From Opitutales bacterium (GTDB taxonomy: Bacteria; Verrucomicrobiota; Verrucomicrobiia; Opitutales; PNEW01): a stretch of 64,000 bases of DNA. Under the pieces are notes generated by a model. That model saw only the letters and a program-made list of their open reading frames with translations, was not told the DNA's origin and searched no databases. This document shows positions 1,601 through 63,068 of this stretch, piece by piece (position 1 is the first letter of the stretch; each line of letters starts with the position of its first letter). Made by a program: the position numbers and the translations under genes. Location of the stretch: contig CBDANS010000006.1 of the NCBI GenBank assembly GCA_965197745.1, forward strand, positions 128,001 through 192,000, given 5' to 3'.

Positions 1601-1823
1601 TTGTCATTGCGAGGAGCAACGCGACGCGGCAATCCAGGCGAATAGTCGTTGTGTCTATAAATGCCAATCACATCTCAGATCTATCCAATGAGGATTCGTC
1701 CAGCTGAAAATAAGCCCTGAAATCCAGAGTCTATAGAACGCAATAGACATCCCCGTGGAATGGAAGATGTCGCTACGCTCGGTAAGCGCGTCTCCCGCAG
1801 TTGCGGGATCCTCGCAAGGACAA
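1601..1823. repeat. ~220 bp MITE/REP-like element with TTGTCATTGCGAGG...CCTCGCAA(T/G)GACAA ends, copy 1
   Basis: Terminal inverted repeats. Homologous along its length to 29342-29564 and partly to 30360-30460. Confidence 0.8.
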
Positions 1824-4151: not shown

Positions 4152-5162
4152 ATGTCCAAACAGCGTCGAAAACTCCACATCGCTTGCGCCCTCGATTCGG
4201 ATATCTTCCATCAGGTCGAGAACGCTGCGCCGGTGATTGATCGGGCGCGCTACGACTACGATGTTGTCCACACCCTGGAACGTCTCTATCAATCCGTAGA
4301 TCTCGTGCCCATCAACAGCAATCTGGATCGCGCCTACAAGGTGTTAAAACAAATCGAACCAGACGTGGTTTTCAACCTCGCCTATTGTGGTCTAAAGAAA
4401 GAACCGACTTTCGCCGAGTTTCTTGATCGCATCGGCCTCCCCTACACCGGCTCTGGGCAAAAAGGGATTGCCCTCGCCGACGACAAAATCAGGTCACGGA
4501 AGCTGCTGCGTGCGGCAGGTCTGCATGTTCCAAGGTTCGTGAAATTACCTATCGGTGCATTAAAAGCGAAGTTTGACCTAAGGCCACCGTTAATCGTCAA
4601 GCCAGCCCTACTGGGCGCCAGTTCGTCGGGGATCTACCTCGATAGTCTCGTCATGACTCAGGCGGCCGCGATGGCGCGCGCGCGACGCGTGTGGACTCGA
4701 TGCGGTGTTCCCGCAGTGTGTGACGAGTTTATTGTTGGCCGCGAACTGCGGATCGGTGTAGTCGAGGACCGCAACGCCAAGTTTCGTGTCGCGGGTATCA
4801 CTGAGATCCTTTTTCCAAAATCAAATCCCGGCTGGGGGTTCTGGAGTGAAGGTATACGAAATAACGCACGCAATCGTCACGCCAGGGGTGTCCATTACAG
4901 GGCTGCCCGATTGCCCAAAAAAGTAAAAGCCGAAATTCATTCAATCGCGGATAAAGCGATGCGTGTTCTCGATCTTCGTGGATACGCGACCCTCGACGTT
5001 CGCCTCGATGCGCGTGAACGTTGCATCATTATCGAAGTTAACGCCAACCCCGGCCTTTCCAGTAGTTTTCTCTCCTGGCGCATACCGAGCTTCACCGAAA
5101 ATATTCGTCAAATCGTAGGCGCCGCCCATAATATTCAAAAGGGGGCACTCCTTGAATCTTGA
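4152..5162 (+). CDS. D-Ala-D-Ala ligase-like ATP-grasp protein
   Basis: PDVVFNL, PYTGS, PLIVKP, EFIVGRE, LDVRLD and IEVNANPGL motifs. Confidence 0.8.
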   Translation: MSKQRRKLHIACALDSDIFHQVENAAPVIDRARYDYDVVHTLERLYQSVDLVPINSNLDRAYKVLKQIEPDVVFNLAYCGLKKEPTFAEFLDRIGLPYTGSGQKGIALADDKIRSRKLLRAAGLHVPRFVKLPIGALKAKFDLRPPLIVKPALLGASSSGIYLDSLVMTQAAAMARARRVWTRCGVPAVCDEFIVGRELRIGVVEDRNAKFRVAGITEILFPKSNPGWGFWSEGIRNNARNRHARGVHYRAARLPKKVKAEIHSIADKAMRVLDLRGYATLDVRLDARERCIIIEVNANPGLSSSFLSWRIPSFTENIRQIVGAAHNIQKGALLES

Positions 5163-34759: not shown

Positions 34760-35803
34760 TCAGACTGCGAATTCTTTGATTTTATTCAAGGTTCTGTAGG
34801 CTTTACTTCTGTTCTTCTGCTCACGCCGAAAGATACTAACATTGTGACTAACCGAATTATACTCACCCATATTCAACCTGGCTGCGATCCATCCGTTTCT
34901 GGCTGATGTATGTTCTTTCAGTGTCAGGGCGATGGCCAATTTCCATTCCGCTGATTTCCTGTCTTTCTCAATGTCAGACTTCGTCTTCTTCAGAGATCTC
35001 AGACATTCTTCCAAAGTGGTTTCCCAACCGAGCTCATTAAGCTCCTGTACTTCCCCGGCCTCCATGTGCATCAAGGAACGCGATTCCTTGAAGTCTTTAA
35101 CTAAGGCTTTCTTGTACCCTCTACTTCCTATGCACGATCCTCGGCTCAATCTCCTGCGTTGCTTCTCAAGTTTCTCATCATCAGTCGTATGAGTTTGGCG
35201 CAACAATTCCAGATACTCTCGCCATCCCGCTGCATTATCCTCAATCCTTCCCAGGTCATAAAGCCAGTCTTGCAATGAAGCACTTTCTCACGCTTTCGCT
35301 GTAGAAACTTCGGTAGACTGCTGAACGCGTAATCGCCTACATGGCCAATGCTTACGATTCCAGCCCGTACTGGGTTTAAGTGAATGTAATTTACCACCTC
35401 ACACAGGGCCGTTCCAGGCTCAACTACCAGTGACTTATAACGCCCTTGAAAGAGATGTCCATTCTCTCCTCGCAGTCGATTGAATCGATTCGCGAAGGTG
35501 GACTGCAGCCATTGCATCCCGAAGATCAGATTCCCCTTTGGCGTTGCAATCGCCAGGTGGTAATGATTGCGCATAATTACATAGGCATACAGCCACCACC
35601 CGGACTTCTCGCACGCTTCAATCAGCGTCCGTATGAAAGCTCTCTTTGTCTTCGCCGAATAGAACAGGTCCCGGCGATAGTTTCCCCGGTTGATGATGTG
35701 GTAGAGCCCGTCGTTACTTTCAATCCTTGATTTTCGAGCCATTTTCTAGCAATTCCAGTCCTCCAATAGTTTCTTATCAAACAAAGTATTCGCAGTCTGA
35801 CCC
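34757..35803 (-). mobile_element. REP-associated tyrosine transposase (RAYT) gene, frameshifted near 35275, bracketed by ~21-bp inverted repeats GGGTCAGACTGCGAAT
   Basis: YHIINRGN, MRNHYHL (HUH), HLFQGRYKS and YIHLNPVRAG. Inverted repeats at 34757 and 35783-35803. Confidence 0.85.
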
Positions 35804-35811
35804 TTTTTTTC

Positions 35812-36425
35812 TGTGTCGTTGAACAAATCGGTGAATACCGCTGGAGTAGTTTAGCCTGGTATCTACAAAAGAACCGTCCTCCGCTGTTAAATATGGATGC
35901 CGTATTGTCAGCAATCGGTGGAATCAAGGATAGCCCGATAGCCCATATGCACATAAGAAGTATTTGGTTTACCTGAAGTTTCTGGCAGAGAGTGAATCAG
36001 ATCGCAAAGCGTTGGCTTTCGATGTACTCAGTAAGGGATGGTGTCAGGGATCTACGGAATTTAAAGAGGATTCGATCAAACGGTTGAAAAAAAAGGGAGC
36101 AGATCTGGAGCGTACCACATTGCTGGGAGTCCAGTCAGTAGAATTCAGTGATGTCAGAGAGATGCAATGGGATTTAATGCTCTCAAAATTGGCCAAGAAG
36201 GCGCGGATCAACCTGGTTGACCTACCTGACAAAAAATCTGCTTTTGAAAAAGTGCTGTTGGCGAGTTTGATGAAACAAACTAGCTCGGTGAGTAATGGTT
36301 GGCTGGCAGAACGTTTATCTATGGGTCAACCGTCAAGCGTAAGTCAGTTTGTGAGGCGAATGGAGTTGAAAAGGGACGAATTGTGGGTGAAGAAAGAAAA
36401 GATTTTGTCAAATGTCAAGACATGA
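35812..36425 (+). pseudogene. 3' fragment of a second RAYT gene, ending in TGACCCC
   Basis: EYRWSSL, LSKGWCQGS and SNGWLAERLSMG parallel the C-terminus of the adjacent RAYT. Confidence 0.7.
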
Positions 36426-46862: not shown

Positions 46863-48213
46863 TGATCGGACCCCGTATTTCGTATCAAATTTTAAGTGAG
46901 AGAACTACCGGGTGTTAATGGTTTTAGGATTGATGTATATGAGAGATCTTGGCGCAGTGAGGGCGTAGCCCGAACGCGGCCAAGAGCGGAAAGGAATGTG
47001 ACAAACTCTTGTGGGCTTTTAAAGCCTAATCGACTGTGGGGATGTTCATTGTTATAGGTCTGACGCCATTGTTCTATTACAACTTGTGCTTCAGCCACGC
47101 TGAGCAACACTTCACGGTTCAAACACTCATCGCGTAAGCGGTTGTGAAACGACTCGATGAAACCGTTTTGCCAGGGACTGCCCGGATCGATATATATCGC
47201 CTTGATCTTTTTGTCGGACAACCACTGCTGCACCTGATGAGCAATGAATGGCTTCGCATGTCGTCGCTTCGCTCCTCGGAACACTGCCGTTGTCACTGCG
47301 GATATAGCTAGGAACTCCCTCTTCATCGATGGTTTCGCTGAGTACCGAGAGAACATCGGTTGAGGTGAGCTGTCGAGCTACCCGGATGCGTAAACATTTA
47401 CGCGTATATGTCTTCGCTTCGCTTGAGTGTCGTCGCTTTCAGCTCCTCGGTACATCGATCAAGGTCATCATCTTTAGCATACCGCCATTGTCTGTACGAT
47501 CATGGACAAAGTCCCAGGACCAGACGTGATTGCGACCGGTTGCTTTAGTAGGGAGCCCAGTAGAGATCCCCTGACGGTGTCTACGCTTTTTCGGGGGCTT
47601 TACCTGTAAGCCCGAAGAACGTCGCACTGCCTGTACAAATTTCCTGCTTGCCGCCCAACCTTCTTTCACCAGCAAGGCACGAATGCGCCGGTAACCGTAA
47701 CGGGGATGTTCCCAGGACAAGGTCAAAATCCGCTCGGCCAATTGCTGAGCCTTCTTACTGGCCTGCTTGGGTCGGTAGCTGTACGTTGACCAACTGAGGC
47801 TGAGATAAGCACAAGCCCTCTAAAACGAGCACAGCCCCTTCTCAGCCGCATCTTTTACTGCTCGCTTCTTCTGCTTTGGGCTCACCATTTTTTTGAGAGC
47901 GTTTCCTCCAACACCCGAAGCTTGAGCATTTGATCAGCGAGCATCTTCTTCAGCTCCGTATTCTCCTTTTCCAGCTCTTTAAATCGCTTCGCATCAGCCA
48001 GCTCCAAGTTGCCATACTTTTTGCCCCAGCGATAGAAGGTCTGTTCACTTAGGTTGTTGCCGTGGCAGACTTCCTGCACGGTTTTGCCCGTATCGGGCTG
48101 CCGCAGTATTGCTATGATCTGTTCTGTTGTATATCTTTTTCTTTTCATTGAGGTTATCTGTTTATCCCGATAACCTCTCTCTGTTAATGATACCATTTTT
48201 GGGGGTCACTCCA
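46863..48213 (-). mobile_element. IS3-family element A, copy 1 (orfB inactivated)
   Basis: TG...CA ends, orfA MKRKRYTTEQII, and orfB WSWDF, SDNG and PGSPWQNGFIESF. Carries an early TAG and two micro-insertions. Confidence 0.9.
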
Positions 48214-49208
48214 AATCATGGAGGAGATTGAGGGCATAGCGATCGAGGTTATGAAGAATCTCAAGAATCTGAGCATAGTGACTGGAATCCTTGTGGATAA
48301 AGGGCGCTTACTCTTGGGTGAAGCGCCGAGGCATACAGAGCACATCAAGGGTGACACGCTGGGTGATGCGGCATCAGTGATCGAGTCTCTCCCGTCCGGG
48401 CCTGTGATTGAAGCGGACACCGCGTCCGGTGATCGACCTTGTAAGTAATGGGGCGTGGGTTAATTTTATCAAACCTGATAATGGATAACGAGCAATTAAT
48501 AGATAATACCTTTGTTCTCAGAGATAGACCCCTGCTTGAGCTATTCGATGCTGTGGAGCTTATACAGGGAGTTGTGGAGAGAGCAGTTTTTTGCGAAAAT
48601 TTTAGATCGAAACATTTCTTTTTGACGGACAATATCTGGAAACATCAAAGGCGAATTTACCCATCAAATGTCGGTATGCTCATTGAAAACAGATGTGCAA
48701 ATGCATTGACCGACTTTTACATGTGAGTCTTCATACGGATTCCAGAAAGTCCGCTGTTTAAGCTTCCCTGTAGACACACTTAAAAAAAGAACATGTCTGT
48801 CGAGCCAGCATAAACACACTTTACTGATCACAGCATGACAACCTCTCCCACCCGTTAGTCCAGAAGACCGTTATCGGCGCCAGTGTGTGGTAGACAAAAA
48901 GGGGAGTGCCGATCAGTAAGATCTGCAGTGACTGTGTTCCCGAACTGGCTCCCGGGTTCATCTGGACAGAAGATCGAAGTCTGTGAACCGCACAACACTT
49001 ATTATGTCCAGTTGATTTTTAAGTGATTGATATTCAACATATTAATTTTAAAGCCTAAATTCCTAACGGTCATAAAACAACATAAACTAAGGAGTAGCCC
49101 TTAATTAACTGCCGTAGTTTCAGTCGAGATTAAACCCTTATTGTGACATTAAAAGCTGTCCCGATATAGGGTGTTGTGCAAGTTCATTCCTGCAAGATGT
49201 CCGGGTCT

Positions 49209-49997
49209 GCATCATAACGATTCATCCACCTGGGATTCGTTCCGCATTGCCCGTCCGTCTTTGTAGGTCGCCGAGTCAACCAGTCAAATTAGTCTACTGA
49301 GTCAACCGAGTCGGAGCGGTATACAGCACAAGCATAACCCCGAAACGTAAGGCAAAGGGGGGCGGGGGGGGCCGCCGCCGAAGGCGGCCGACCCTGATCT
49401 ATCGGTCTGCAACGCGAAAAATATTTTTACAAAAGGAAACGTTTAGAAGCAAAATAATAAAACAAAACCTTATTAATTTGCTCTAGAAAGAACGAGCATC
49501 CTTCGTTATGAAATCAACCCTGTCCTGAGATCCAAACGCCCTTTCTCGAGGCGCTCAAGTACCTTGAATGGTGGCACAACAACAAGCTACAATCCCCACA
49601 TCTTTCCCGATATGTTGTGTCGGATCATGAATACGGGCAAACTCACTTATCAGTGACTGGTCAAAGCCGCGTGATATCCTGTAAGAAAATTGGAGTAGTA
49701 GCATAACTAGGAATTTCCTCCATCATCAATTGACTGCATAATATTCCTTGCCGTTTGCAGGTCACCTGTTTGAGATCATGTGGACAGTTTTTTAAAATAT
49801 CGGTGCCAGATTTCGCGTTTATCGAGGAGATGAGGGTTAAATTCTTCCAAACCAGGAAAATCGATACCTAACTTTCTATGTGCGGCGAGTAGATCTGTGA
49901 TCTTAAGGTAATCGTCGGGCCTGAGTCACCATCCTGAGCCGAGCATCATAACGATCCATCCACCTGGGGTTCGTTCCGCATTGCCCGTTCGTCTTTG
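49209..49997 (+). repeat. 55-bp direct repeat (49209-49263 and 49943-49997)
   Basis: gcatcataacgat(t/c)catccacctggg(a/g)ttcgttccgcattgcccgt(c/t)cgtctttg. Confidence 0.8.
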
Positions 49998-50357
49998 AAA
50001 ACAAGCATTATCCATGCGCAAATAAAAAAGTAACACCCGTAACGTTAGGCGGGAGGGGCAAGCCGTAGCCTAACATGTGTAATCGATTTCACCTCAGAAA
50101 ATAAATTTTATATAAGCCGTTTACTCGAAAGAAAATTCTGAATAACCTTTTAACTAAGACACATAATATTGCCATGAATGTCGTCGGATAATAGCCTTTA
50201 AAATGGGAATGATATACTTCAAACCACATAGAGCAAAACAGCCTACACCATGACAGGACTCTCAAGTGTTCCCCTGTAAAGTTTATGAGACCCTTTCGTG
50301 TCATCCCCCCACAGGGCAACCGCTCTTACTATGTGTTCTGCGCGAGCTTTGCCCGCT

Positions 50358-51335
50358 CTACGGTCCCTCCTCTATATCCTCCGGATAATAGCCGGCGCCG
50401 ATCAGAATCGGCAGTCCAAAGGACACAACCCTCTTGACGAATGACACCTTGCGCTCCTCCATCTCACTCGACGGATTGCGCTTCGTGTAATACAGGAAGC
50501 TCTCTCCGAAGGCGTCCGCAACGCTCACAAGATCCTGGTCTTCGACCGGTCCTACCAACTCGGACATTATATCATCCGGCTCGCTGTATGAATCGCCACT
50601 GAACAGAGTGTAGCCATAAGTATCGATGGCAAACAAGTAGATTGATCCGTGTTTCCATCGCGGTTCCGTGGTCAAAGTGTTGATCGCAAAGTAGCCTTTC
50701 ATTTCAAGTTCCATCGCAGCGCAACGGACATACTCCTTCAGTCTCTCGTTGGAAGGATCGCTATCGAGCAACATGGCATTGACCTCTTCACTTGTGCACG
50801 CTCCGGGAATATCTCGGAGGTAGATCCCCGCACCGATCGCGGCCGGAGTCCCGTCCCAGTCGATGTTCTTGATGTAGGAAGCCTTCGGCTCATCCCTGCC
50901 TGTCGCTGGATTTGGGAACGAGTAATAGAGCCAGCCTTCATCGACGATACTCAGGATGCGCTGCCCTTCACTGAAGAATTCGTTGCCGAAGGCATCGATC
51001 AGCGGTCCCAACGGTTTCCCTTCCCTCGAGGGGTCGGGTGGGAAGACGACCAATCGCTGAGTCATGTCTGTCGCATCGGCGACAAAGACATAGATTTGGC
51101 CGTATCTCCAGCGCTCGTCTTCGTGGAAGGCCCTGCGTGCCTCGCTGAAGCCCTTTGCGCGGACATACTCGTAGGCACACTGAACGAACGCCTGTATGTC
51201 TTCAGGAGTGCGCACCGCGCGGGCGGCGATGGAGTGCTCCGTGCAAGACACAACTTCATGAGCGCCAAACATCGGCAGCACAACGAACGTTGAGATTAAG
51301 GAAATCAAGAATGGGCAGAGCTTGTGTTTCATCAT
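50358..51335 (-). CDS. exported tandem Cache-domain protein, paralog 1
   Basis: Signal peptide and two sCache-like units (YVFV...GWLYYSFPNP...KASYIK...GAGIY). Confidence 0.8.
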   Translation of the reverse strand: MMKHKLCPFLISLISTFVVLPMFGAHEVVSCTEHSIAARAVRTPEDIQAFVQCAYEYVRAKGFSEARRAFHEDERWRYGQIYVFVADATDMTQRLVVFPPDPSREGKPLGPLIDAFGNEFFSEGQRILSIVDEGWLYYSFPNPATGRDEPKASYIKNIDWDGTPAAIGAGIYLRDIPGACTSEEVNAMLLDSDPSNERLKEYVRCAAMELEMKGYFAINTLTTEPRWKHGSIYLFAIDTYGYTLFSGDSYSEPDDIMSELVGPVEDQDLVSVADAFGESFLYYTKRNPSSEMEERKVSFVKRVVSFGLPILIGAGYYPEDIEEGP

Positions 51336-51582
51336 TTTTAAATGTTCGGGATTCTTTGCTATTGGAATTTAGGAAAGTAAAGTTTGCGTTGGTAGCCTTC
51401 CCCTCTTGTCCGCCCCAGGTATTCAATGGCTCGTTCTTTGGTTCGGGAAGACTCAAATAGTTCAATTATACTCATCATAAGCAACTCTACTTCATTCGGA
51501 GCACAAGTTTATGAGTCCCTTTATGTCATCCCCCACAAGGACAGGTGCTCCTACCATGTGTTCTGCGCGAGCTTTGCCCGGC

Positions 51583-52557
51583 TTATGGACTCTCCTCCAG
51601 ATAATAGCCGGCGCCAATCAGAATTGGCAGTCCAAAGGACACTACCCTCTTGACGAATGACACCTTGCGCTCCTCCATTTCACTCGACGGATTGCGCTTC
51701 GTGTAATACAGGAAGCTCTCTCCGAAGGCGTCCGCAACGCTCACAAGATCCTGGTCTTCGACCGGTCCTACCAACTCGGACATTATATCATCCGGCTCGC
51801 TGTATGAATCGCCACTGAACAGAGTGTAGCCATAAGTATCGATGGCAAACAAGTAGATTGATCCGTGTTTCCATCGCGGTTCCGTGGTCAAAGTGTTGAT
51901 CGCAAAGTAGCCTTTCATTTCAAGTTCCATCGCAGCGCAACGGACAAACTCCTTGAGCCTCTCGTTGGAAGGATCGTCATCGAGCAACATGGCATTGACC
52001 TCTTCGCTGTTGCACGTACCCGGGATGTCGCGGCGGTAGATCCCCGCACCGATCCCGGCATGAGTCCCGTCCCAGTCGATGCTCTTGACGTAAGAAGCCT
52101 TCGGCTCGTTCCTGTCCGTCGCTGGGTTTTTGAAGGAGTAGTAAACCCAACCCTCCCCGAAGCTACCCACGACGCGGGTAAATTCCTTGACGATATCGTT
52201 TCCGTACACATCGATCAGCAGTCCCCAAGACACTCCTTCCCGCGAAGGGTCGGGTGGGTAGACGAACGCTCGCGACATATCGGACATGGCGGGCAATTCG
52301 TCCACGAATACGTAGATCGGGCCGTGTTTCCAGCGCTCGTCCTCGTTAAAGGCCCTGCGTGCCTCCACGAAGCCCTCTTCCAGGACATACTCGTAGGCGC
52401 ATTGAACGAAAGCCTCTACGTCCTCTAGGGTGCGCACCGCGCTGGCCATGATGGAGTGCTCCGCGCAAGACGGAGGCTCAGCAGCACCGAACATCGGCAG
52501 CACGGTGCACATTGAGATTAAGGGGATCAGCAATGGGCAGAGGTGGTGCTTCATCAT
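51583..52557 (-). CDS. exported tandem Cache-domain protein, paralog 2
   Basis: Paralog of 50358..51335. Confidence 0.8.
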   Translation of the reverse strand: MMKHHLCPLLIPLISMCTVLPMFGAAEPPSCAEHSIMASAVRTLEDVEAFVQCAYEYVLEEGFVEARRAFNEDERWKHGPIYVFVDELPAMSDMSRAFVYPPDPSREGVSWGLLIDVYGNDIVKEFTRVVGSFGEGWVYYSFKNPATDRNEPKASYVKSIDWDGTHAGIGAGIYRRDIPGTCNSEEVNAMLLDDDPSNERLKEFVRCAAMELEMKGYFAINTLTTEPRWKHGSIYLFAIDTYGYTLFSGDSYSEPDDIMSELVGPVEDQDLVSVADAFGESFLYYTKRNPSSEMEERKVSFVKRVVSFGLPILIGAGYYLEESP

Positions 52558-53449
52558 TTGTAAATATTCGGGATTCTTTGCTTTTGAAATGGTGGAAAGG
52601 TCAAATTGTGTATAGTATTAATCAGATTGTCAATAATCTCAATAAGAGAATGCTATACATTGCTTGAGTACCCTTAACGCTTTTTCTTAGTCAACAATAA
52701 CAATGATGTTTCAAAAGGTAGAGTATTCAAAGAAACGGTTTATCCTCCACCAGACGCGTAATCAATACGTGATAAATAAAGGAAATTATATTTGTTACGA
52801 TAAGCAGCCATCGACTTTTCGCCTCAACTTCCAGTAGCGGCTTGAGATCCATCATCTGTTCTTCAAATACAGCGGCTAAGCACGCAAATATAAATGAGTA
52901 ATTCTTAAGGTTGAGAGGACCTTGCAGTTATTGAAGAGCGCATAGATAAAGACAAGCGTTTTTCGATTGGACGGAGATGGCTCTTTCTATCTTATCCTTT
53001 ACCGAAGACACCTTTGGCTAGCAATGTATATCATACCCAAAAGATTGGCTATTTCTTATGAATGGCTTTATCCTTCCGAGATCGACTTGCATATGTATTG
53101 TGTTCGGCGTTCAGGTCAAAGGCAGTGGTTCAAAAGTTATTATTATGAGAAAAATGATTCCACGTTATCGGCGTTACTATTGTAATATTTATTGTAACTT
53201 ACAATTAAAATATATGTAACTAATTGATAAACAATATATATAGTATAGTATAATTAGAACAGTTAATATCACACATTGAGATCAAGCGACATCTGCTCCC
53301 CCTATGCGCCCCACTTTTTGCTATTTAACGCTATATACTACTATTTAGTTTCTCTGGACATAAGCTATAAACTGATTCATAAGTGCTTATAAATTAATAT
53401 AAAACGTTGATTTATAAGGGGTACCAAGGAGGAGAGTTGAACTCTCTAT

Positions 53450-54602
53450 TAAAGGCCTGTGTGGTCTTTGAGTATTATAATCAAGCCGCCAGGCTTCAAG
53501 TTTTTCTTTCGCTTGCACCAGCGTACAAAATAGCTCGGTGTTAAGAAGTTCATCGCGTAAGCGTCCATTGAAGCTCTCAATATAACCATTCTCTACGGGT
53601 TTGCCTGGGCGGATAAAATCCAGCTCGATGCCGTGACCATAAGCCCACTCATCCAGTACTTTGCCGGCAAACTCGGGACCATTATCGACGGTAATGGTTT
53701 GGGGAAGACCGATTCCTGCAGCGGCTTTCATAAGTGCGGCAGCGACTTTGCACCCACCGATGGACGTATCGACCAGAAGCAGTGGGCAAGCTCGGGTGTA
53801 TTGATCGACAACGGTGAGAATGCGGAAGGGGCGGCCGTTGACCAGCCGATCGCTCATAAAGTCCATCGACCAGCGCTCCTGGGCTGCTGAAGCCGCGGGC
53901 AGTGAGACCCGCCTTTGCGCGGCACGCTTCTTTCGTTTCTTCGTGCGCACTTCCAGCCCTTCGGCCTTGTAGATACGATAAACGCGTTTCTTTCCTACCG
54001 TCCAGCCTTCCCGCTTTAATAACACCGTTATTCGCCGATACCCGTAGCGCACGCGCGCGGCGGCGAGGTCACCGATGCGCATGATCAGCGCACGTTCGTC
54101 CTTCTTCACCGGCTGGTAGTTATAACTCGACCAATACAACTGCATCAACCTGCACGCCCGGCGTTTGCTAACCTCATAGGCTTCCACTAACCACTCACCT
54201 TCTTGCGCACAGGCTTTACAACTTTTTTGAGATAACTTCCTGCAGCATATGCTTGTCCAGGCTCAGATCAGCTACCAGCTTCTTCAAACTAGTGTTCTCT
54301 TCGTCGCGTTGCTTCAGCCGTCTTAATTCACTGATTCCCATGCCCGCGTATTTACTCTTCCAACGGTGGTAGGTCTGTTCGCTTACCCCTAACTCTCCAC
54401 ACACTTCGGCGATCCTTCGTCCGCCTTCAACCTGCCTTAGGGCATAGATGATTTGTTCTTTATTATAGCGTTTGTCAGGCCTTCTCGGCTGTGCCTCGTG
54501 AACCTTTGCTTTTCATGGGTCGTTCTTTCTCCTATTTTTTATTAGCTTTTTCACCCATGCCAGACTAAATCTTCGCTGGTCCAGTTTTACGGGGTCCGAT
54601 CA
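53450..54602 (-). mobile_element. IS3-family element C (orfA disrupted, distal end missing)
   Basis: End TGATCGGACCCCG at 54602. orfA starts at 54516 with a 34-nt insertion. orfB has WSMDF, DNGPEF and [15 protein letters not shown]. Confidence 0.9.
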
Positions 54603-54921
54603 CTTTTGATGGGCAAGCCTATCCTGGTTTTGTGTATGCCTTAATCCCTACAAAGGCTTTGTTTAGTTTTTGAATATCATTTCATTTACAGAACATTACT
54701 CAATGTATTGACTAGGGCATTATGAAAGACATAGCACGCCTTGAAGATAAATACAAAATAGCAGAATATAAAACAGTTGCTAGTTCATCTTCCCAAGGGC
54801 TCGACTAGGAAGTAAATGAGCTTATACAAAATGGATGGGAAGTATGGGGCAAACCTTACTGTATAATAAGAGCTCAGACAGTAGCCCAACAGGTAATGGT
54901 CAAGTTGATAGAAAGAGTTGA

Positions 54922-55185
54922 TTAACGATGGGCAATCATCCTTTTTACGCCTGAAATCTCAAAGAGTAGTTTAAAAGGAGCTTTTATTTCTTCCTTAATT
55001 GTATTAAAATTTCTAGTGAATACCTTTTCGATTTCCTTTTTACCCCGATATGTTCCATCAGAAAAAATAAAATATGCATCTTCATGAATGAGGTCTTCGA
55101 CTGACTTCCAGCTTTGAAGAGCTAATCGTTTTTCGTATTCTTTCAGCAATTCAATGTGTTTCTGGATCGCGGGCATAAGCTTCAT
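54922..55185 (-). pseudogene. truncated NTF2/DUF4440-like protein
   Basis: LIHEDAYFIFSDGTYRGK...FTRNF, followed by an unrelated tail. Confidence 0.55.
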
Positions 55186-55340
55186 CTAAATCTAAACTTG
55201 TTCTACAGTGTCTGATCTAGGATTTTCTATTAGTTCAAAATAATTAACCAAAAACTCAAAGTCATCTTCTGGATCATTAAAGTATTCCCATGTCTAATTA
55301 TATGAAGCTCCATATGGGCATGATTCTTTTTTACTTTTCA

Positions 55341-55793
55341 CTAGAAGGAATTACCTGTAGTGCTTGGGTCACTATACCGCGGTGATCTGCCCTCTTCTGC
55401 ATCATGCACATCAAAGGCAGTCTGAATATAATCACAACCTTCTTTTCCTAGTCTTTTCTTTTCATCCACTACCCAATCAGATATGTCGTCCCGAAGACCT
55501 CGCTTTTCCATAAAGTGATTGAAAATCATAATCTCTTCATCATTTGGTTTCCTAGCTGCTTTAAAACACCAATCGAGGATTTCTTCATCAGACTTTTCAC
55601 TTCTTACTTTCTTTATTAAATCTTCATATTCTATTCCTAAAAAACGAACAATTCGTTCATCAAGGCCGTGACCAAGATTGTAATCTGGAGGTAGACTCCC
55701 TTCTTCGTTTAAACGTATTTTATCTAATGTTCTCCCAAAAAACACCAATCCACCAATTTTTTCGTAACCTGATCTCGGGATCTTATTTTTCAT
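55341..55793 (-). CDS. DUF5069-like protein
   Basis: PRS.YEKIGGLVFFGRTLDKIR...LPPDY...D.EEGR. Confidence 0.75.
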   Translation of the reverse strand: MKNKIPRSGYEKIGGLVFFGRTLDKIRLNEEGSLPPDYNLGHGLDERIVRFLGIEYEDLIKKVRSEKSDEEILDWCFKAARKPNDEEIMIFNHFMEKRGLRDDISDWVVDEKKRLGKEGCDYIQTAFDVHDAEEGRSPRYSDPSTTGNSF

Positions 55794-55964
55794 TTCGCTT
55801 CTAACCCCAACATATTGCTTACCGCTTCACTTGCACAACACATTTGTATAACTGCACCAGATAGTAGTAGAGCGATAATATTTCTTAGGATAAATCTAAG
55901 CACATAAGAATTGCTGACTCTGGGCACAGTTCTTTAAACTCTTGTGTAAAGTTCAATTCGTGAG

Positions 55965-56438
55965 ATTGAATCAATTACAGGTCTGCCGTTCGATCATGGC
56001 AACGTCGCCGAGTTTCTTGGTAACCAGATTTTCAACATAGAACTAGCACCACCAAAGCAAAAGGGGTTTGATGGTTGGTTCAAATCCGGTATGTTCAAAG
56101 CCAAACCGCTCAAGGGTAAAACGGTCAATGTGAAGTGGTATATGAGGGTGGATAAATATCACCTCGACATGACCAAAGCTAAGCCCCAGCCAGATTATTA
56201 TCTTGTTTTCAAGGGGCCTAAAAAAGAATTGCTGGGATGGTATATCAATTATGTTTTTATATTCCATACCGAGACCTTAAGGGGACTGCTCAAATCTAGA
56301 GGCAGAAAAGTTGGAACATCCAGTAGCGTCAAAAAGGGGGATTGGGGGGAAGCTCAAATTTACCCCTCTTTACCTAATTCCCCAATGAAACTAAACCAAA
56401 ATCAGGAATCCAAGCTTAGGATTTTTAAACATGAGTAA
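55965..56438 (+). pseudogene. conserved-looking hypothetical protein, 5' part broken by stops
   Basis: The frame is open well upstream of the ATG at 56091 (GNVAEFL..QIFNIEL...KGFDG...GKTVNVKWY). Confidence 0.45.
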
Positions 56439-57118
56439 ATAGAACTTTTTTAAAATCAAAATAAAGACAAATAAAAATGACAAAAGAACCAGAATTGCCA
56501 GACAATGAGATTGGCCGGTCACAGCGTTATATAGACGGACCGGCCAACATGGCAGACATAACTTTGATCCCAGAAGGCGAACTTAAGAAAAAAGAGAGAG
56601 AAAAACGAGCGGCCAAAGAATTAGAGACTGATTAAGGAGATTTAAAAATATTGTTAAAAACAACTCCCAGAAAATAGAACTTCTCAAATTATCAGGCATA
56701 TAGAACATCTAACAGAAAATCGAAGTTTTTAAAATCGAGAAGCCCGCAAGATCATCGACGTTTAACGGTCGAGGTCCGGCCTATACCTATTCTATAGGAT
56801 GAAATACCATAGGCAGTTGCAAAGCCAGGCAACCCCATTGAAACTAAAATTTGATTAGACTCTTAAGTGAATAGGAAGTATTTTAAGAAATAGAACTTCT
56901 TGAGTAAAAAAGGTAATTAGGGAAGTCGTTACAGAAAGGGCATAAGGTAAAATGCCAAACAACAATAGCCCTCAAAAGAGAGTAATAACCCCACTATCTC
57001 ATTACTACGTATTTAAAGATTTATAAAAAAAGGAACTTTTAGAACGAAAGAGGCCGCTAAGTAATAAAGTTAATAACGATCTACTGCCCTGATGCAGTTT
57101 GAACTTGTTGAGATGGAT

Positions 57119-58467
57119 TGATCGGACCCCGTTATTCGTACCAGTTTAAGTGAGAGAGTTACCGGGTAATAATGGTTTTAGGATTGATGTATAGGATAGA
57201 TCCTGGTGAAGTGAGGGCGTAGCCCGAACGCGGCCAGGATCTGAAAGGAATGTGACAAACTCTTGTGGGCTTTTAAAGCCTAATCGACTGTGGGGATGTT
57301 CATTGTTATAGGTCTGACGCCATTGTTCTATTACAACTTGTGCTTCAGCCACGCTGAGCAACACTTCACGGTTCAAACACTCATCGCGTAAGCGGTTGTG
57401 AAACGACTCGATGAAACCGTTTTGCCAGGGACTGCCCGGATCGATATATATCGCCTTGATCTTTTTGTCGGACAACCACTGCTGCACCTGATGAGCAATG
57501 AATGGCTTCGCATGTCGTCGCTTCGCTCCTCGGAACACTGCCGTTGTCACTGCGGATATAGCTAGGAACTCCCTCTTCATCGATGGTTTCGCTGAGTACC
57601 GAGAGAACATCGGTTGAGGTGAGCTGTCGAGCTACCCGGATGCGTAAACATTTACGCGTATATGTCTTCGCTTCGCTTGAGTGTCGTCGCTTTCAGCTCC
57701 TCGGTACATCGATCAAGGTCATCATCTTTAGCATACCGCCATTGTCTGTACGATCATGGACAAAGTCCCAGGACCAGACGTGATTGCGACCGGTTGCTTT
57801 AGTAGGGAGCCCAGTAGAGATCCCCTGACGGTGTCTACGCTTTTTCGGGGGCTTTACCTGTAAGCCCGAAGAACGTCGCACTGCCTGTACAAATTTCCTG
57901 CTTGCCGCCCAACCTTCTTTCACCAGCAAGGCACGAATGCGCCGGTAACCGTAACGGGGATGTTCCCAGGACAAGGTCAAAATCCGCTCGGCCAATTGCT
58001 GAGCCTTCTTACTGGCCTGCTTGGGTCGGTAGCTGTACGTTGACCAACTGAGGCTGAGATAAGCACAAGCCCTCTAAAACGAGCACAGCCCCTTCTCAGC
58101 CGCATCTTTTACTGCTCGCTTCTTCTGCTTTGGGCTCACCATTTTTTTGAGAGCGTTTCCTCCAACACCCGAAGCTTGAGCATTTGATCAGCGAGCATCT
58201 TCTTCAGCTCCGTATTCTCCTTTTCCAGCTCTTTAAATCGCTTCGCATCAGCCAGCTCCAAGTTGCCATACTTTTTGCCCCAGCGATAGAAGGTCTGTTC
58301 ACTTAGGTTGTTGCCGTGGCAGACTTCCTGCACGGTTTTGCCCGTATCGGGCTGCCGCAGTATTGCTATGATCTGTTCTGTTGTATATCTTTTTCTTTTC
58401 ATTGAGGTTATCTGTTTATCCCGATAACCTCTCTCTGTTAATGATACCATTTTTGGGGGTCACTCCA
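57119..58467 (-). mobile_element. IS3-family element A, copy 2
   Basis: Near-identical to 46863-48213, with the same lesions. Confidence 0.9.
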
Positions 58468-58958
58468 CGAAGACTATTGGAGAATTATCAAAAACCAAAA
58501 AGCTTCAGTTAGAATGGTGGAAATTTTTTTCTGATGAGTTATTAAAAAAGAAAGTAATACCTTCGGTCCGTAAACCACTACCTCAGTCATGGTACGATGT
58601 TCCTCTAGGAAGGAGTGGAATCCATATCTCAAATATTGCTAATACTTATGATCGTAAAATTAAAGTCCGAGTTTATCTGAGGACAAGCTCAAATGCTGAT
58701 GCTGCTCTTGTTCAGCTATTAGATCAACGAGAGGAGATCGAAGCAGAACTGGGGACTAAATTAATTTGGAATCCTTATCCAGAAAATCAAGATAAAACAA
58801 TTTGTGTTTATCATGATGCGGATATTTCTAAACGTGAAAAATGGCAGGAATACTGTGATTGGATGATTGATATGACTAAAAATTTTAGAGAGGTCTTCAT
58901 CCCGAGAGTGCGTGAACTTAATCTGAGTATTGAGCGTGAGGTTGAACCTGATAATTAA
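58468..58958 (+). pseudogene. DUF4268-like C-terminal fragment truncated by IS3
   Basis: LQLEWW...KPLPQSWYDVPLGRSGIHI...EIEAELG.KLIW...FIPRV. Confidence 0.7.
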
Positions 58959-59003
58959 AGCTTGTGACTACTCAAAATTATTTTCTAAGGAACCATTGGC
59001 ATT

Positions 59004-59215
59004 ACAATTTATATTAAAACCCACTTCTTTAATCAAGCGTCAAGCAGTCTTTCCGATCTTTAAACCTATCTTTTGTAATGTAGAAATAGCTGGCTCTTTT
59101 GCACCCCGTTCAAGGTCATCAATATTGTTCTTACTAAGGCTGACTAACTAGGCGAATTTCTTCTAAGACAGGTCTAATTCAATCCTGTGTTTACGGATTG
59201 CTTTGCCAAGACTAG
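59004..59215 (-). pseudogene. XRE-family HTH regulator remnant
   Basis: LGKAIRKHR..LDLS*KKFA*LV.LSKNNI.DLERG.KEP.ISTL with internal stops. Confidence 0.65.
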
Positions 59216-59329
59216 CGGCAACAGGAGATTTAGTTAGGAGTGGTTAAGTCGGCGGACAAATGTGGGCCACATACTCTTAAATAAGCTTTAAATTATCGAC
59301 CAACTATCCCGATAGTCTTTCCCTTTAAA

Positions 59330-59357
59330 TGATACGATTATTTTGGGGGTCACTCCA
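59330..59357 (-). mobile_element. isolated IS3-A terminal repeat
   Basis: TGATACGATTATTTTGGGGGTCACTCCA matches the element ends at 48213 and 58467. Confidence 0.7.
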
Positions 59358-59874
59358 ATATATTATTTAAATCAGTAGCACCTATTTCCATAGATCTGTT
59401 TAATAATGCATTCCAAGCCTCTTCTCTAAATTGATCAGGGTTCTTGGAATATAATCTTTTTACTATTATGTAGGGATTACGAACTAACACAAAACTACGA
59501 GGACCAGATGGACCAGATTTCACGTCGATAAATCCAAGTCCTTTCAAAATATCGATTCTTTGCGACCACGTTTGGAGAGCACGTTGACCAGAAAACCCGG
59601 ATGAAAACGCCATCTCCTGCTGTTTCCCAGATAGGTTTAAAAATGAGGTATCATACATTCTGCACCAAAGATCTAAATAGGTAGATGATACTGGCTTCCC
59701 GTTAGAAAAATTATCCATTATGCGCATAAAGTAGGGTAGAGTACGCGGAATAGTGGTAAATCCTTTTTTCTTTTTTCGGTTCCATAAATCGTCTTCCTTT
59801 AGATCAGGCCATAGCTGATCTCGAAGGAGCAATTGCTTTTCTTCAATTTTCTTTTTTATAATAGTACTATTCAT
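59350..59874 (-). CDS. hypothetical island protein (possible winged helix)
   Basis: 174-aa ORF with GFTTIPRTLP and AFSSGFSGQRA..TW. Its stop codon is supplied by the IS end. Confidence 0.65.
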   Translation of the reverse strand: MNSTIIKKKIEEKQLLLRDQLWPDLKEDDLWNRKKKKGFTTIPRTLPYFMRIMDNFSNGKPVSSTYLDLWCRMYDTSFLNLSGKQQEMAFSSGFSGQRALQTWSQRIDILKGLGFIDVKSGPSGPRSFVLVRNPYIIVKRLYSKNPDQFREEAWNALLNRSMEIGATDLNNILE

Positions 59875-60113
59875 TATTGTAATTTATTGTTTATGGATTA
59901 AATCTAAAACGAAGCAGGGTTTGGACCCCTGCTCCTTAACATTGACTTATTATTGGATGATTAGTAATGAGAAGTTTGGACCTTCGTGATCCAATAATTA
60001 TTGGATGTTTGAGTAAACATAGCACGTAATTGTTTGAGTGTCAATGATTTATATAATATAAATGAATGTATGAGGATGCATAAAGTGTGCATTGTTATTT
60101 ATAATATTGCAAT

Positions 60114-61431
60114 TGGTCGTGACCACGAAAACTGGTACACTTGAAAAGTTAGTCTGGGTAACCTAGAAAGGACTCAGACAATGAAAGGCAAAAGATACAC
60201 AACTGAAGAGAAAATACGGATGCTGCGGCAGGCGGACAAAGGGAAAACGATCCTGGAAGCATGCCGCGAGAACAACATTAGCGAACAGACTTTCCACCGC
60301 TGGAAGCGTGAGTTTGGGATGATTGATGTCGACCAGGCCAAGCGGATGAAGGAACTCTTTGAAGGAGAACGCGCGGTTAAAACGGATGCTGGCGGACAAG
60401 ATGCTGGGGATAGAGATCCTGCAGGAGACCCTCGAAAAAAAACTGTAAGCCCTGGGCACAAGCGGCAAGTGGCAGAGAGACTTGTGGCTCGGGGCCAGTG
60501 TTCGATGCGAGCGGGGTGCCGGTACTTTCGGCTGCACCGTTCCACCTATGCGTATAAGGCGAAGCATCCGGATGCTTGGTTAATGAAACTGAAGGCGGCA
60601 GTAAGGCGGTTATCACGGCAATATGCCAGGTGGGGCTATCCGAAGATCACGAAGCTGTTGAAAGACGAAGGCTGGGAGGTGGGTAAACGTCTCGTGCAAG
60701 GTCTACGACGCGAACTGGGCTTGGCGATCCCCCAACGCAAGCCAAGACGTCGGGGCAGGGGTGTTTCCACCGGGCTGCCGACCAAGGCCGAACATCCCGG
60801 CCATGTTTGGACCTGGGATTTTATCCACGATAAGACGGTCCGCGGTGGCAGTTTAAAAATGTTGACCGTGCTCGATGAGTACACCCGCGAGTGTCGAGTG
60901 ATCCATGTTGATCGCCATATCAATGCGGAAACGGTGCGCGGTATCATGCAAAAACTGCTTGCCCGTCATGGGCCGCCACAATATATTCGCAGTGACAACG
61001 GTTCCGTTCCGAGGAGCGAAGCGACGACATGCGAAGCCATTCATTGAAAAGGAATTGAGAGCCTGGCTAACTGCGATGAAAATCAAAACCCTCTATATCG
61101 AACCAGGAAGCCCTTGGCAGAACGGATACATCGAATCGTTGCATGCCCGTTTTCGCGAGGAGTGTTTAAACCGTGAACAGCTATGGACTTTGACCGAAGC
61201 CCGCGTGGTGATCGAGGACTGGCGCTGGCTTTACAATAATGTCCGACCCCACCGCAGCCTCGGCAATATCACCCCACGGTGCTTCGCTGAAGACATTAAT
61301 ACCGAAGGCTTGGGCTCCATTCGGGCTACGCCCTCATTGCGCCCAAGCCTTGACTTCCTCTACCAACTTAACTTCAACATTAACCTCTCCAGACTAACTC
61401 TCTCGGTGGACCAGTTTACGTAACCCGATCA
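60114..61431 (+). mobile_element. IS3-family element B (orfA frameshifted, orfB carrying a micro-insertion)
   Basis: TG...CA ends, MKGKRYTTEEKI, WTWDF, LDEYTREC, SDNG and PGSPWQNGYIES. Confidence 0.9.
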
Positions 61432-61511
61432 TACACAACTCGCACATTATAAATTCAGAAAAGACAGCATATTTACTCTTACTCATTGATTGTGTCGACG
61501 ATTGCTTAAAT

Positions 61512-62740: not shown

Positions 62741-62744
62741 CTTA

Positions 62745-63007
62745 TATCGTGAGCAGTTATGGACGTTGACCGAGGTTGACGTGGTTATCGAAGATTGGCG
62801 CTGGCTTTATAACACTGTCCGTCCACACCGCAGTCTCGGTAATATTACTCCGAGGTGCTTTGCCTAGAATGCCTGTAAACAAGGTTTGGGCTCCACTCGG
62901 GCTACTCCTCATTCCGCCCAAACCTTGACTTCCTCTACCAACTTAACTATCAACTTAAACCTCTCCAGACTAACTCTCCCAGTGGACCAGTTTGCGTAAC
63001 CTGACCA
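62745..63007 (+). mobile_element. 3' remnant of a second IS3-B copy
   Basis: Parallels about 61170-61431. Confidence 0.8.
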
Positions 63008-63068
63008 TACTCATTCTCAGGATCCGAAGCGAGCTCAGCGAGTGAAACAATCAAGGCAACGATATCGA

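Follow-up and report, generated by a model that had tools for sequence, protein, structure and literature searches.

Short, probably mobile DNA modules that interrupt conserved glutamate codons of IS3-family transposase genes in an Opitutales bacterium

Repetitive extragenic palindromes (REPs) with GTAG or CGTC tags occur with RAYT transposases, and Di Nocera et al. (2013, PMC3733652) describe REPs inside open reading frames (ORFs) as well as small repeats nested in 'target palindromes', with most intragenic REPs found in Opitutus terrae. Another hairpin-associated arrangement is the NTS-ssn-NTS layout, where Ssn are GIY-YIG single-strand nucleases that cut single-stranded DNA a few bases 5' of a hairpin (Chenal et al. 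2025, PMC11893778). Here, a 64,000-nt stretch of DNA from an Opitutales bacterium (contig CBDANS010000006.1, positions 128,001 to 192,000; hereafter the window) is described, in which short inserts, termed modules, interrupt orfB of IS3-family insertion sequences (ISs). The reading proposed is of a site-specific, REP-like micro-element of DNA whose target rule is defined. The data make it probable that these non-coding, site-specific mobile modules of 32-43 nt repeatedly broke IS3 orfB and then spread on the defective copies.

Several other small elements offer points of comparison. The miniature derivatives of IS200/IS605 (PATEs) have subterminal hairpins, a short specific target, a fixed orientation and no target duplication; elements of this type insert 3' of a fixed tetra- or pentanucleotide, leave the target unchanged and have an orientation linked to the replication strand. 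HUH 'peel and paste' insertion is not known to remove a base of its target or to require such a loss. Rickettsia palindromic elements are small palindromic selfish DNAs that lie in frame inside ORFs and are tolerated there. Homing elements can occupy mobile elements or conserved motifs, as do the group II intron RmInt1 in ISRm2011-2 and inteins or introns in catalytic motifs. Bypass elements, known from T4 gene 60 and as the 'byps' of Magnusiomyces mitochondria, are short G+C-rich hairpin inserts of 27-55 nt in coding sequence.

The modules of the window lie in two IS copies of a type termed ISA and one of a divergent type termed ISB. Three target sites are distinguished, each of which can be filled (F) or empty (e); states are given in the order of sites 1, 2 and 3, and a caret marks the insertion point.

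46863..48213, minus strand: ISA copy, IS3-family orfA/orfB (BLAST bounds); sites 1 and 2 filled, site 3 empty (FFe)
47410..47452, minus strand: 43-nt module, type b (TACC...), at site 1; replaces one base of the LIDEYTR Glu codon; in-frame TGA
47250..47281, minus strand: 32-nt module, type a (TTCC...), at site 2, the SDNGSEF Glu codon; +1 frameshift
47125..47128, minus strand: empty site 3 (G^AGT, Glu of RLRDECLN); a 36-nt module is here in other copies and in contigs of RNA run X17
57118..58467, minus strand: second ISA copy, state FFe as in the first copy
57664..57706, minus strand: 43-nt module, site 1 of the second ISA copy
57504..57535, minus strand: 32-nt module, site 2 of the second ISA copy
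60114..61431, plus strand: ISB, IS3-family copy; site 1 empty (G60877^A60878), site 2 filled
61007..61038, plus strand: 32-nt module, site 2 of ISB, identical to the ISA site-2 module

The 32-mer and the 43-mer are thus found where the original prediction had placed them, and in 100 shuffles neither is expected by chance (0 for each). The prediction that the 32-mer splits the Glu codon of SDNGSEF in both IS types was borne out by sequence reading and an alignment of 76 full-length IS copies, as was, by sequence reading and alignment with empty alleles, its claim that the 43-mer splits the Glu codon of LIDEYTR in ISA. The G[insert]AT context without target duplication also holds across the 76 copies, empty alleles included, and OrfB is indeed broken, by an in-frame TGA at site 1 (net +42 nt) and a +1 frameshift at site 2 (net +31 nt). 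Beyond what had been noted before, there is a third site at the Glu codon of RLRDECLN, where a 36-nt module (net +35 nt) is present in 9 of the 76 copies and shifts the OrfB frame as the site 2 module does. Site 3 is empty in the IS copies of the window itself, and in the ISB lineage, where it reads GG^AGT, no copy in the alignment has it filled.

Intact relatives of these ISs match Pfam HTH_Tnp_1, HTH_21, rve and rve_3, which places them in the IS3 family. The copies are 1286-1351 nt long with ends TGGTCG...CGACCA, the ends of ISA differing from those of ISB. An extra in-frame TAG is read in orfB of the ISA copy at 46863..48213. At window 59305-59358 and 62742-63013, between the full copies and next to them, are short decayed fragments of ISA (IS positions 17-68) and ISB (1067-1338, 81% identity), which mark the stretch as IS-rich and rearranged. 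ISB also has a polymorphism in orfA (window 60330-60345, alignment columns 265-267), CTC-GAG-AAG versus CTCTTTGAAG, in which GA is replaced by TTT. The change shifts the frame so that orfA and orfB form one frame, 415 codons long in empty copies and 300 in filled copies; both forms are present among empty and among filled copies.

Exact junctions were fixed by aligning the 76 full-length copies, intact ones included; empty alleles are available for all three sites, and one target base is lost at each. Empty alleles read GATG|AATAT or GATG|AGTAC at site 1, CAGTG|AATTC, CAGTG|AGTTC or TTCCG|AGTTT at site 2, and GATG|AGTGT at site 3. Filled alleles read G[module]AT, that is, G-A-R-T becomes G-[module]-A-T and the GAR codon is replaced by G, module and A. 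The module therefore replaces a single base, which accounts for the net gains of 42, 31 and 35 nt, and nothing is duplicated. Closely matched pairs of alleles are available in two genomes. In the genome of the window (G000), four intact, empty ISB-type copies (ISB2) sit at four unrelated loci, two with a 415-codon fused frame and two with frames of 100 and 354 codons, and, one end-gap column in one pair aside, all differences from their filled partners fall in columns near site 2. In G002, two intact ISA-type copies were compared with four sampled filled copies, all of which match them apart from three singletons and the 43-for-1-nt swap. Site 2 is empty in 45 ISA-type copies of G002, most with site 1 filled, which suggests that about 40 filled copies of the sampled kind exist there.

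The 92%-complete assembly of G000 (4.45 Mb, 7 contigs) was searched with the motif CCGAGGARC-N3-8-GYGACGACA, with the reversed pattern as control. There are 117 copies, against 0 for the control, and 114 of them lie inside IS3-family orfB, all in the sense direction and at the three Glu codons; the inserts are accordingly not spread over random genomic sites. BLAST-defined IS3 copies contain 113 (71 at site 2, SDNGSEF; 30 at site 1, LIDEYTR; 12 at site 3, RLRDECLN). The four others comprise one in a third IS3 lineage, whose gene has 42% protein identity and carries the site-3 module at the homologous codon, and three in hairpin units of about 75 nt directly 3' of tRNA genes. On its sense strand ISA has six YG^ART sites, three of which are used. 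The states of the 76 full-length copies are eFe in 36, FFe in 26, eee in 5, FFF in 5, eeF in 3 and eFF in 1, hence 71 filled against 5 empty. With 114 of 117 modules at three homologous codons in at least three IS3 lineages, one of them at 42% protein identity, that part of the original prediction which called the inserts a site-specific hyperparasite of IS3 is consistent with the data. The mobilisation by an HUH enzyme that it suggested is not supported.

Ratios of non-synonymous to synonymous divergence (dN/dS) were obtained with our own Nei-Gojobori script over 297-342 codons, codons with gaps or stops being dropped. Between module-bearing lineages dN/dS is 0.14-0.30, with dS of 0.34 for ISA1 versus ISA2 and 0.17 for ISB1 versus ISB2 and saturation for ISA versus ISB, so the lineages diverged as working genes; they nevertheless carry identical or nearly identical modules. 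The same codons appear to have been invaded repeatedly, because purifying selection excludes a broken gene, a neutral 32-mer would drift, and one host is only 42% identical. Judged from the sequences, the identical empty and filled pairs likewise argue for recurrence. The fewest state changes on the IS tree number 4, 5 and 5 for sites 1-3, and with losses disallowed there are 7, 20 and 6 all-filled clades, on a quick and poorly resolved tree.

If each site had been hit once, long ago, in an ancestral IS3, and the module had since passed down vertically as an inert scar kept uniform by gene conversion, no site-specific insertion activity would be needed. This would fit the single state of each recent IS burst (for example, ISA1 all FFe and ISB1 all eFe). 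In a chimeric copy (G000:C7:1673285-1674707) the left flank is of ISA type and the right flank of ISB type, with the 32-nt module as the exact junction, which indicates recombination with the module as homology. Old, decayed copies have decayed modules, as this account would expect (C6:197616, 8 changes in 75 nt), which at the same time speaks against general homogenisation. However, the dN/dS values show module-bearing lineages diverging as working genes, at site 2 ISA and ISB have no more than 14 and 8 nt of flank in common, and homologous conversion is not feasible for the site-3 module of the 42%-identical lineage. Modules also stand at G^AAT in unrelated hairpins and tRNA-like units of other genomes. 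An ancient scar is therefore regarded as improbable, and a gene-conversion tract between ISA and ISB, once considered as a possible source of the inserts, fails for the 42%-identical host and for the non-IS contexts.

Broken copies have nonetheless multiplied. Fourteen near-identical FFe ISA copies have one open-frame pattern, with a 126-codon frame from about nt 394; in the ISA copy of the window this frame follows the in-frame TAG, which was read in that copy only and not in the other 13. Their common inserts and common open-frame pattern show that dead ISA copies multiplied, and we infer that the defective copies were moved in trans by rare intact ones.

Taken together, repeated invasion followed by spread on defective copies would proceed as follows. 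The module would enter 5'-YG^ART-3' in one orientation and replace one base without duplication, as the alleles indicate, and would do so again and again at three conserved IS3 Glu codons in divergent lineages. Each insertion would destroy OrfB by frameshift or stop, as is seen in the filled copies. The broken copies would keep their ends and be multiplied in trans by the few intact ones, and hitch-hiking on them may have taken the module to more than 100 copies. It probably acts as single-stranded DNA, which a protein provided in trans would recognise.

The anatomy of the module is regular. A 5' tag, T(T/A)CC, is followed by hairpin I, ACA, a GCGNAGC-type mini-hairpin and a tail of 1-6 nt, and three IS-borne subtypes correspond to three targets (43 nt at site 1, 32 nt at site 2, 36 nt at site 3). 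Hairpin I, GAGGA(G/A)C-loop-G(C/T)GACGA, has a short G+C stem and two tandem G.A/A.G mismatch steps. Among 26 distinct hairpin I variants collected from eight genomes, the pair left free by the search pattern is G-C in 22, A-T in 3, G-T in 1 and A-C in none; the three A-T variants have three different loops in three contexts, and longer loops add further G-C pairs. The module begins T(T/A)CC after the flanking G in 23 of the 26 variants and TGCC or TCCC in the other three, and its junctions read G|T(T/A)CCGAG and C|AT, without a repeated core. The second element is GCGAAGC, GCGCAGC, GCGTAGC or GTC-GCA-GAC, the GCGNAGC type being reported as a DNA mini-hairpin of extraordinary stability (PMC13037366).

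If the inserts were intron-like or bypass elements, filled IS copies would still make transposase, and both the success of these copies and the conservation of the module would follow. Filled copies do far exceed empty ones (71 versus 5 in G000, about 40 versus 2-3 in G002), modules are kept while their flanks diverge at dN/dS below 1, and by arithmetic the excision of G, module and A (34, 45 or 38 nt) would keep the frame at every site, minus the Glu codon. With one base missing, however, removal of the module alone would not restore the frame at any site, and no matching take-off and landing codons were found by eye at any of the three sites. Contigs of four public runs (two metatranscriptome, one probable RNA and one of unspecified type) were aligned to window 57100-61450. 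They contain ISA with sites 1 and 2 filled and ISB with site 2 filled, and X17 contigs carry a module at site 3, which is empty in the window. All joints at a module are at ISB site 2 and have AG (X17, X19) or TAG (X1) between both sides; this is the native GAG codon, also present as DNA in the genome, and the joints therefore represent empty alleles of related strains and not splice products. The check for precise excision from RNA, which had been thought worth making, thus shows no splice-type joints in these contigs, which can miss rare forms; depth comparisons between them are not usable. In addition, ISA1 copies multiplied despite the open-frame pattern expected downstream of a nonsense TAG, modules also occur in non-coding hairpins, and a scan of the window at gathering thresholds matched no Rfam family; at the tRNA-linked loci, Rfam gave only tRNAs and a sub-threshold RtT match (E 0.23). 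Splicing or bypass is thus very unlikely. The presence of the inserts in the public runs and in the complete genomes G001 and G002 means that they are not assembly artefacts.

Beyond G000, a search of relatives found the motif in 8 of 61 genomes of the same order, Opitutales. A scan of species-representative genomes gave at least 116 matches, mostly chance hits or coding sequence in G+C-rich genomes, Collinsella among them, and among the matches listed true modules appear only in Opitutales, Puniceicoccaceae or Coraliomargarita records. IS3-borne modules were seen in only one bacterial family (G000-G002), outside which modules are not in IS3, whereas tRNA-linked or hairpin-borne modules are more widely spread. 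The target rule is kept at the G^AAT sites of these other contexts. In G051 (L029) the module sits in the loop of a small repeated hairpin, and an empty copy (ACGGACAGGAATGTCCGT) adjoins the filled one. In G035 and G056 it lies in tRNA-T-arm-like palindromes 3' of tRNA genes. The modules of G040 are intergenic and form part of mosaic repeats (L021-L046, L189-L191) that combine the module with the short blocks CAGTTTCGAGC..AGCGACAC and CAACATAACAACCTTG, inserted after GGGGTC of a long palindrome, GGGGTCAAGCCTTGCA...TGCAAGGAATGACCCC. The G040 chromosome has 67 module copies, 35 forward and 32 reverse, interspersed, with three inverted pairs 1-2 kb apart; the sequence enclosed by one such pair reads, by eye, like a housekeeping aldolase and not a mobility gene.

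Units of about 75 nt lie directly 3' of tRNA genes at L001 1030-1200 (G000:C6:355529-355699) and L002 1023-1108 (G000:C5:236522-236607), with similar ones at L009, L011, L014, L030 and L037; they recur in G001, G035 and G056. Each has a stem (GGATG/CATCC or GGATT/AATCC) around a GAACC..GGTTC hairpin and the module, followed by a copy of the 3' end of the upstream tRNA with CCA. Sixteen pairs are predicted, two with compensatory changes, and in G035 such units are organised as tandem arrays of about 110 nt. A small RNA, a hairpin target at the DNA level and a donor copy are all conceivable roles. The last would suit a host anti-transposon system in which tRNA-adjacent units supply the cassette and a host enzyme writes it into conserved IS3 codons, silencing the IS. 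The only non-IS modules of G000 are three such units, with similar ones in G001, G035 and G056; the targets are conserved catalytic-domain codons that an IS cannot easily change, and most IS copies are inactivated. Against this, the modules beside tRNA genes have a loop and tail unlike those of any of the three IS-borne types and so are not direct donors, their distribution is wider than the one family in which modules are IS3-borne, IS copy number is very high despite the supposed defence, and no dedicated gene was found. A host defence system, the alternative that the original prediction named, is accordingly considered unlikely.

Candidates for an enzyme that would mobilise the modules were sought among Y1_Tnp, Ssn-type and tyrosine integrase genes, and two further features of the window are relevant.

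35146..35742, minus strand: the one Y1_Tnp gene (RAYT-like, HUH) in the genome, with a frame of 198 aa; an enzyme candidate whose link to the modules is not supported
1607..1626, plus strand: Ssn-type hairpin repeat (TTGCGAGGAGCAACGCGACG); its hairpin core is common with module hairpin I

The counterpart of the Y1_Tnp gene in G001 is a 347-aa frame, 95% identical over 157 aa. In the window a 171-aa frame follows the RAYT-like gene and overlaps it, an inverted 153-aa frame (35964-36425) has a similar C-terminal segment, ...NGW(I/L)A(A/E)RL(N/S)MG..., and from the letters window 34760-36425 looks like a split gene with a partial inverted copy. Y1_Tnp is present in all eight module genomes and also in 22 of 53 others, the genomes being related and not independent. 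G000 has eight small GIY-YIG loci, four of which (C7:1542004, C7:1545659, C7:483646 and C6:787949) are flanked on both sides by inverted GTCATTGCGAGGAGC-N3-GCGACG hairpins. An Ssn-like GIY-YIG protein is also encoded at C5:56623. The core of the Ssn-type repeat has 25 copies in the genome, one in the window, and its distal hairpin has the same letters as module hairpin I (CGAGGAGC-N3-GCGACGA) in G000. Tyrosine integrases (14 matches) were rejected, as their islands use a different IS3 site, ATCGAATCG, and duplicate 18 nt. One integrase-bearing island lies in ISB at this site (IES codons, T-loop-like; L047 ~4380-4400, G000:C7:1066385), with ISB positions 1024-1041 duplicated at both junctions, and three orphan ISB 3' fragments (C1:24256, C6:1180519 and C7:1693031) start at the island insertion point.

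Several of the results weigh against repeated invasion by a mobile module. None of the Y1_Tnp, Ssn-type or integrase associations establishes the module's enzyme. No modules flank the Y1_Tnp gene of the window, nor any of five RAYT-like genes examined in G001, G002 and G040, one of which has a single degenerate module about 0.8 kb away; with Y1_Tnp also present in those 22 of 53 module-free genomes, the suggestion of HUH mobilisation finds no support. The Ssn-type repeat variant is found in only four of the eight module-bearing genomes, and module orientation in G040 has no obvious replichore bias, unlike IS200/IS605. In ISB2, a TTT/TTC difference 3 nt downstream of site 2 is linked to it, which suggests a short conversion tract, and gene conversion among close IS copies could move the module. 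No intact ISA copy that might account for the ISA burst is present among the 76 full-length copies of this 92%-complete assembly. The case for invasion is drawn from comparison of alleles, and the constant loss of one base lacks a worked-out mechanism. Finally, nearest-neighbour folding as DNA or RNA gives the inserts no better energies than shuffles (z of +0.65 to +1.57 for the 32- and 43-nt inserts; for the 36-nt insert, -0.75 as DNA and +0.68 as RNA). The case for the hairpins thus comes from covariation and from what is known of G.A and GNA motifs, and single-stranded DNA is a presumed working form. Nearest-neighbour models are believed to score tandem G.A steps and GNA triloops poorly.

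Of the described systems, REPs resemble the module in several respects. They too are 20-40 nt long with a short tag, a stem-loop, a short tail and a high copy number, can lie within ORFs or within other palindromes, and are presumed to move in trans, and Opitutus terrae, richest in intragenic REPs, belongs to the same order as the host of the module (PMC3733652). The module differs in having no GTAG or CGTC at the stem foot on the structured strand, with T(T/A)CC after G instead, in its two hairpins, and in inserting out of frame so that the gene is destroyed. It also hits homologous codons in divergent IS3 genes, loses one target base and has no flanked RAYT gene. As for REPs being mostly extragenic palindromes, 114 of the 117 copies in G000 are intragenic in IS3 and those of G040 are intergenic, while the palindromic character is supported by covariation and not by energy.

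The left edge of the module lies where Ssn enzymes cut relative to a hairpin, and the four hairpin-flanked GIY-YIG loci have the NTS-ssn-NTS layout, as far as both are described in PMC11893778. The module does not, by eye, match the SRM pattern given there, HGTCWYN(0-2)YYVSBRHN(0-5)WNVSBRGN(0-2)RNCYNB, and its flanks lack HGTCWY. Moreover, the GIY-YIG genes are flanked by the GTCATTGCGAGGAGC type of hairpin and not by the module, and Ssn is a nuclease with no known joining or insertion activity.

Like PATEs, the module has a hairpin near each end, a short specific target, a fixed orientation and no duplication, and a single-stranded DNA mechanism would suit it. It differs from IS200/IS605 elements in losing one base at every site with a known empty allele, in having no strand bias in G040 and in that no associated TnpA was found, and PATEs are several times longer. 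Rickettsia palindromic elements are likewise small palindromic DNAs in ORFs, but IS3-borne modules break the gene and sit in transposase genes. Hyperparasitism of ISs, a conserved, slowly evolving target and repeated invasion of one site in divergent hosts are shared with homing elements, from which the module is set apart by its length of only 32-43 nt and by having no ribozyme, reverse transcriptase or endonuclease gene, or splicing. In contrast to bypass elements, it has no matched take-off and landing codons or expression evidence and is also found outside genes. It is unlike integron attC and tyrosine-recombinase att sites in lacking a G^TTRRRY core or a duplicated core at both junctions. 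A literature search found no description of these inserts; its coverage was too small to call them unpublished, and the supplements of PMC3733652 might list related Opitutus elements.

In its strongest form the proposal would be of an active 'homing' element of 32-43 nt that recognises the context of conserved IS3 Glu codons, swaps the codon for itself, thereby sterilises the IS and drives through the IS3 population, possibly with tRNA-side donors and an unrecognised single-strand DNA enzyme. Such an element is rather unlikely; if real, no smaller site-specific mobile DNA would have been described. Although small palindromic repeats are common, how they move and choose their targets is largely obscure. 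The modules provide a clean system, with otherwise identical filled and empty alleles, an exact GART to G[module]AT rule, three subtypes for three targets, and measurable IS3 activity. If found, the enzyme would be a compact tool for site-specific insertion or for cutting single-stranded DNA. For the ISs of this bacterial family, the probable picture is of a mobile element disabled codon-specifically by a second, far smaller one, which bears on how ISs are silenced in genomes with hundreds of copies and on whether non-autonomous IS3 copies can be driven in trans.

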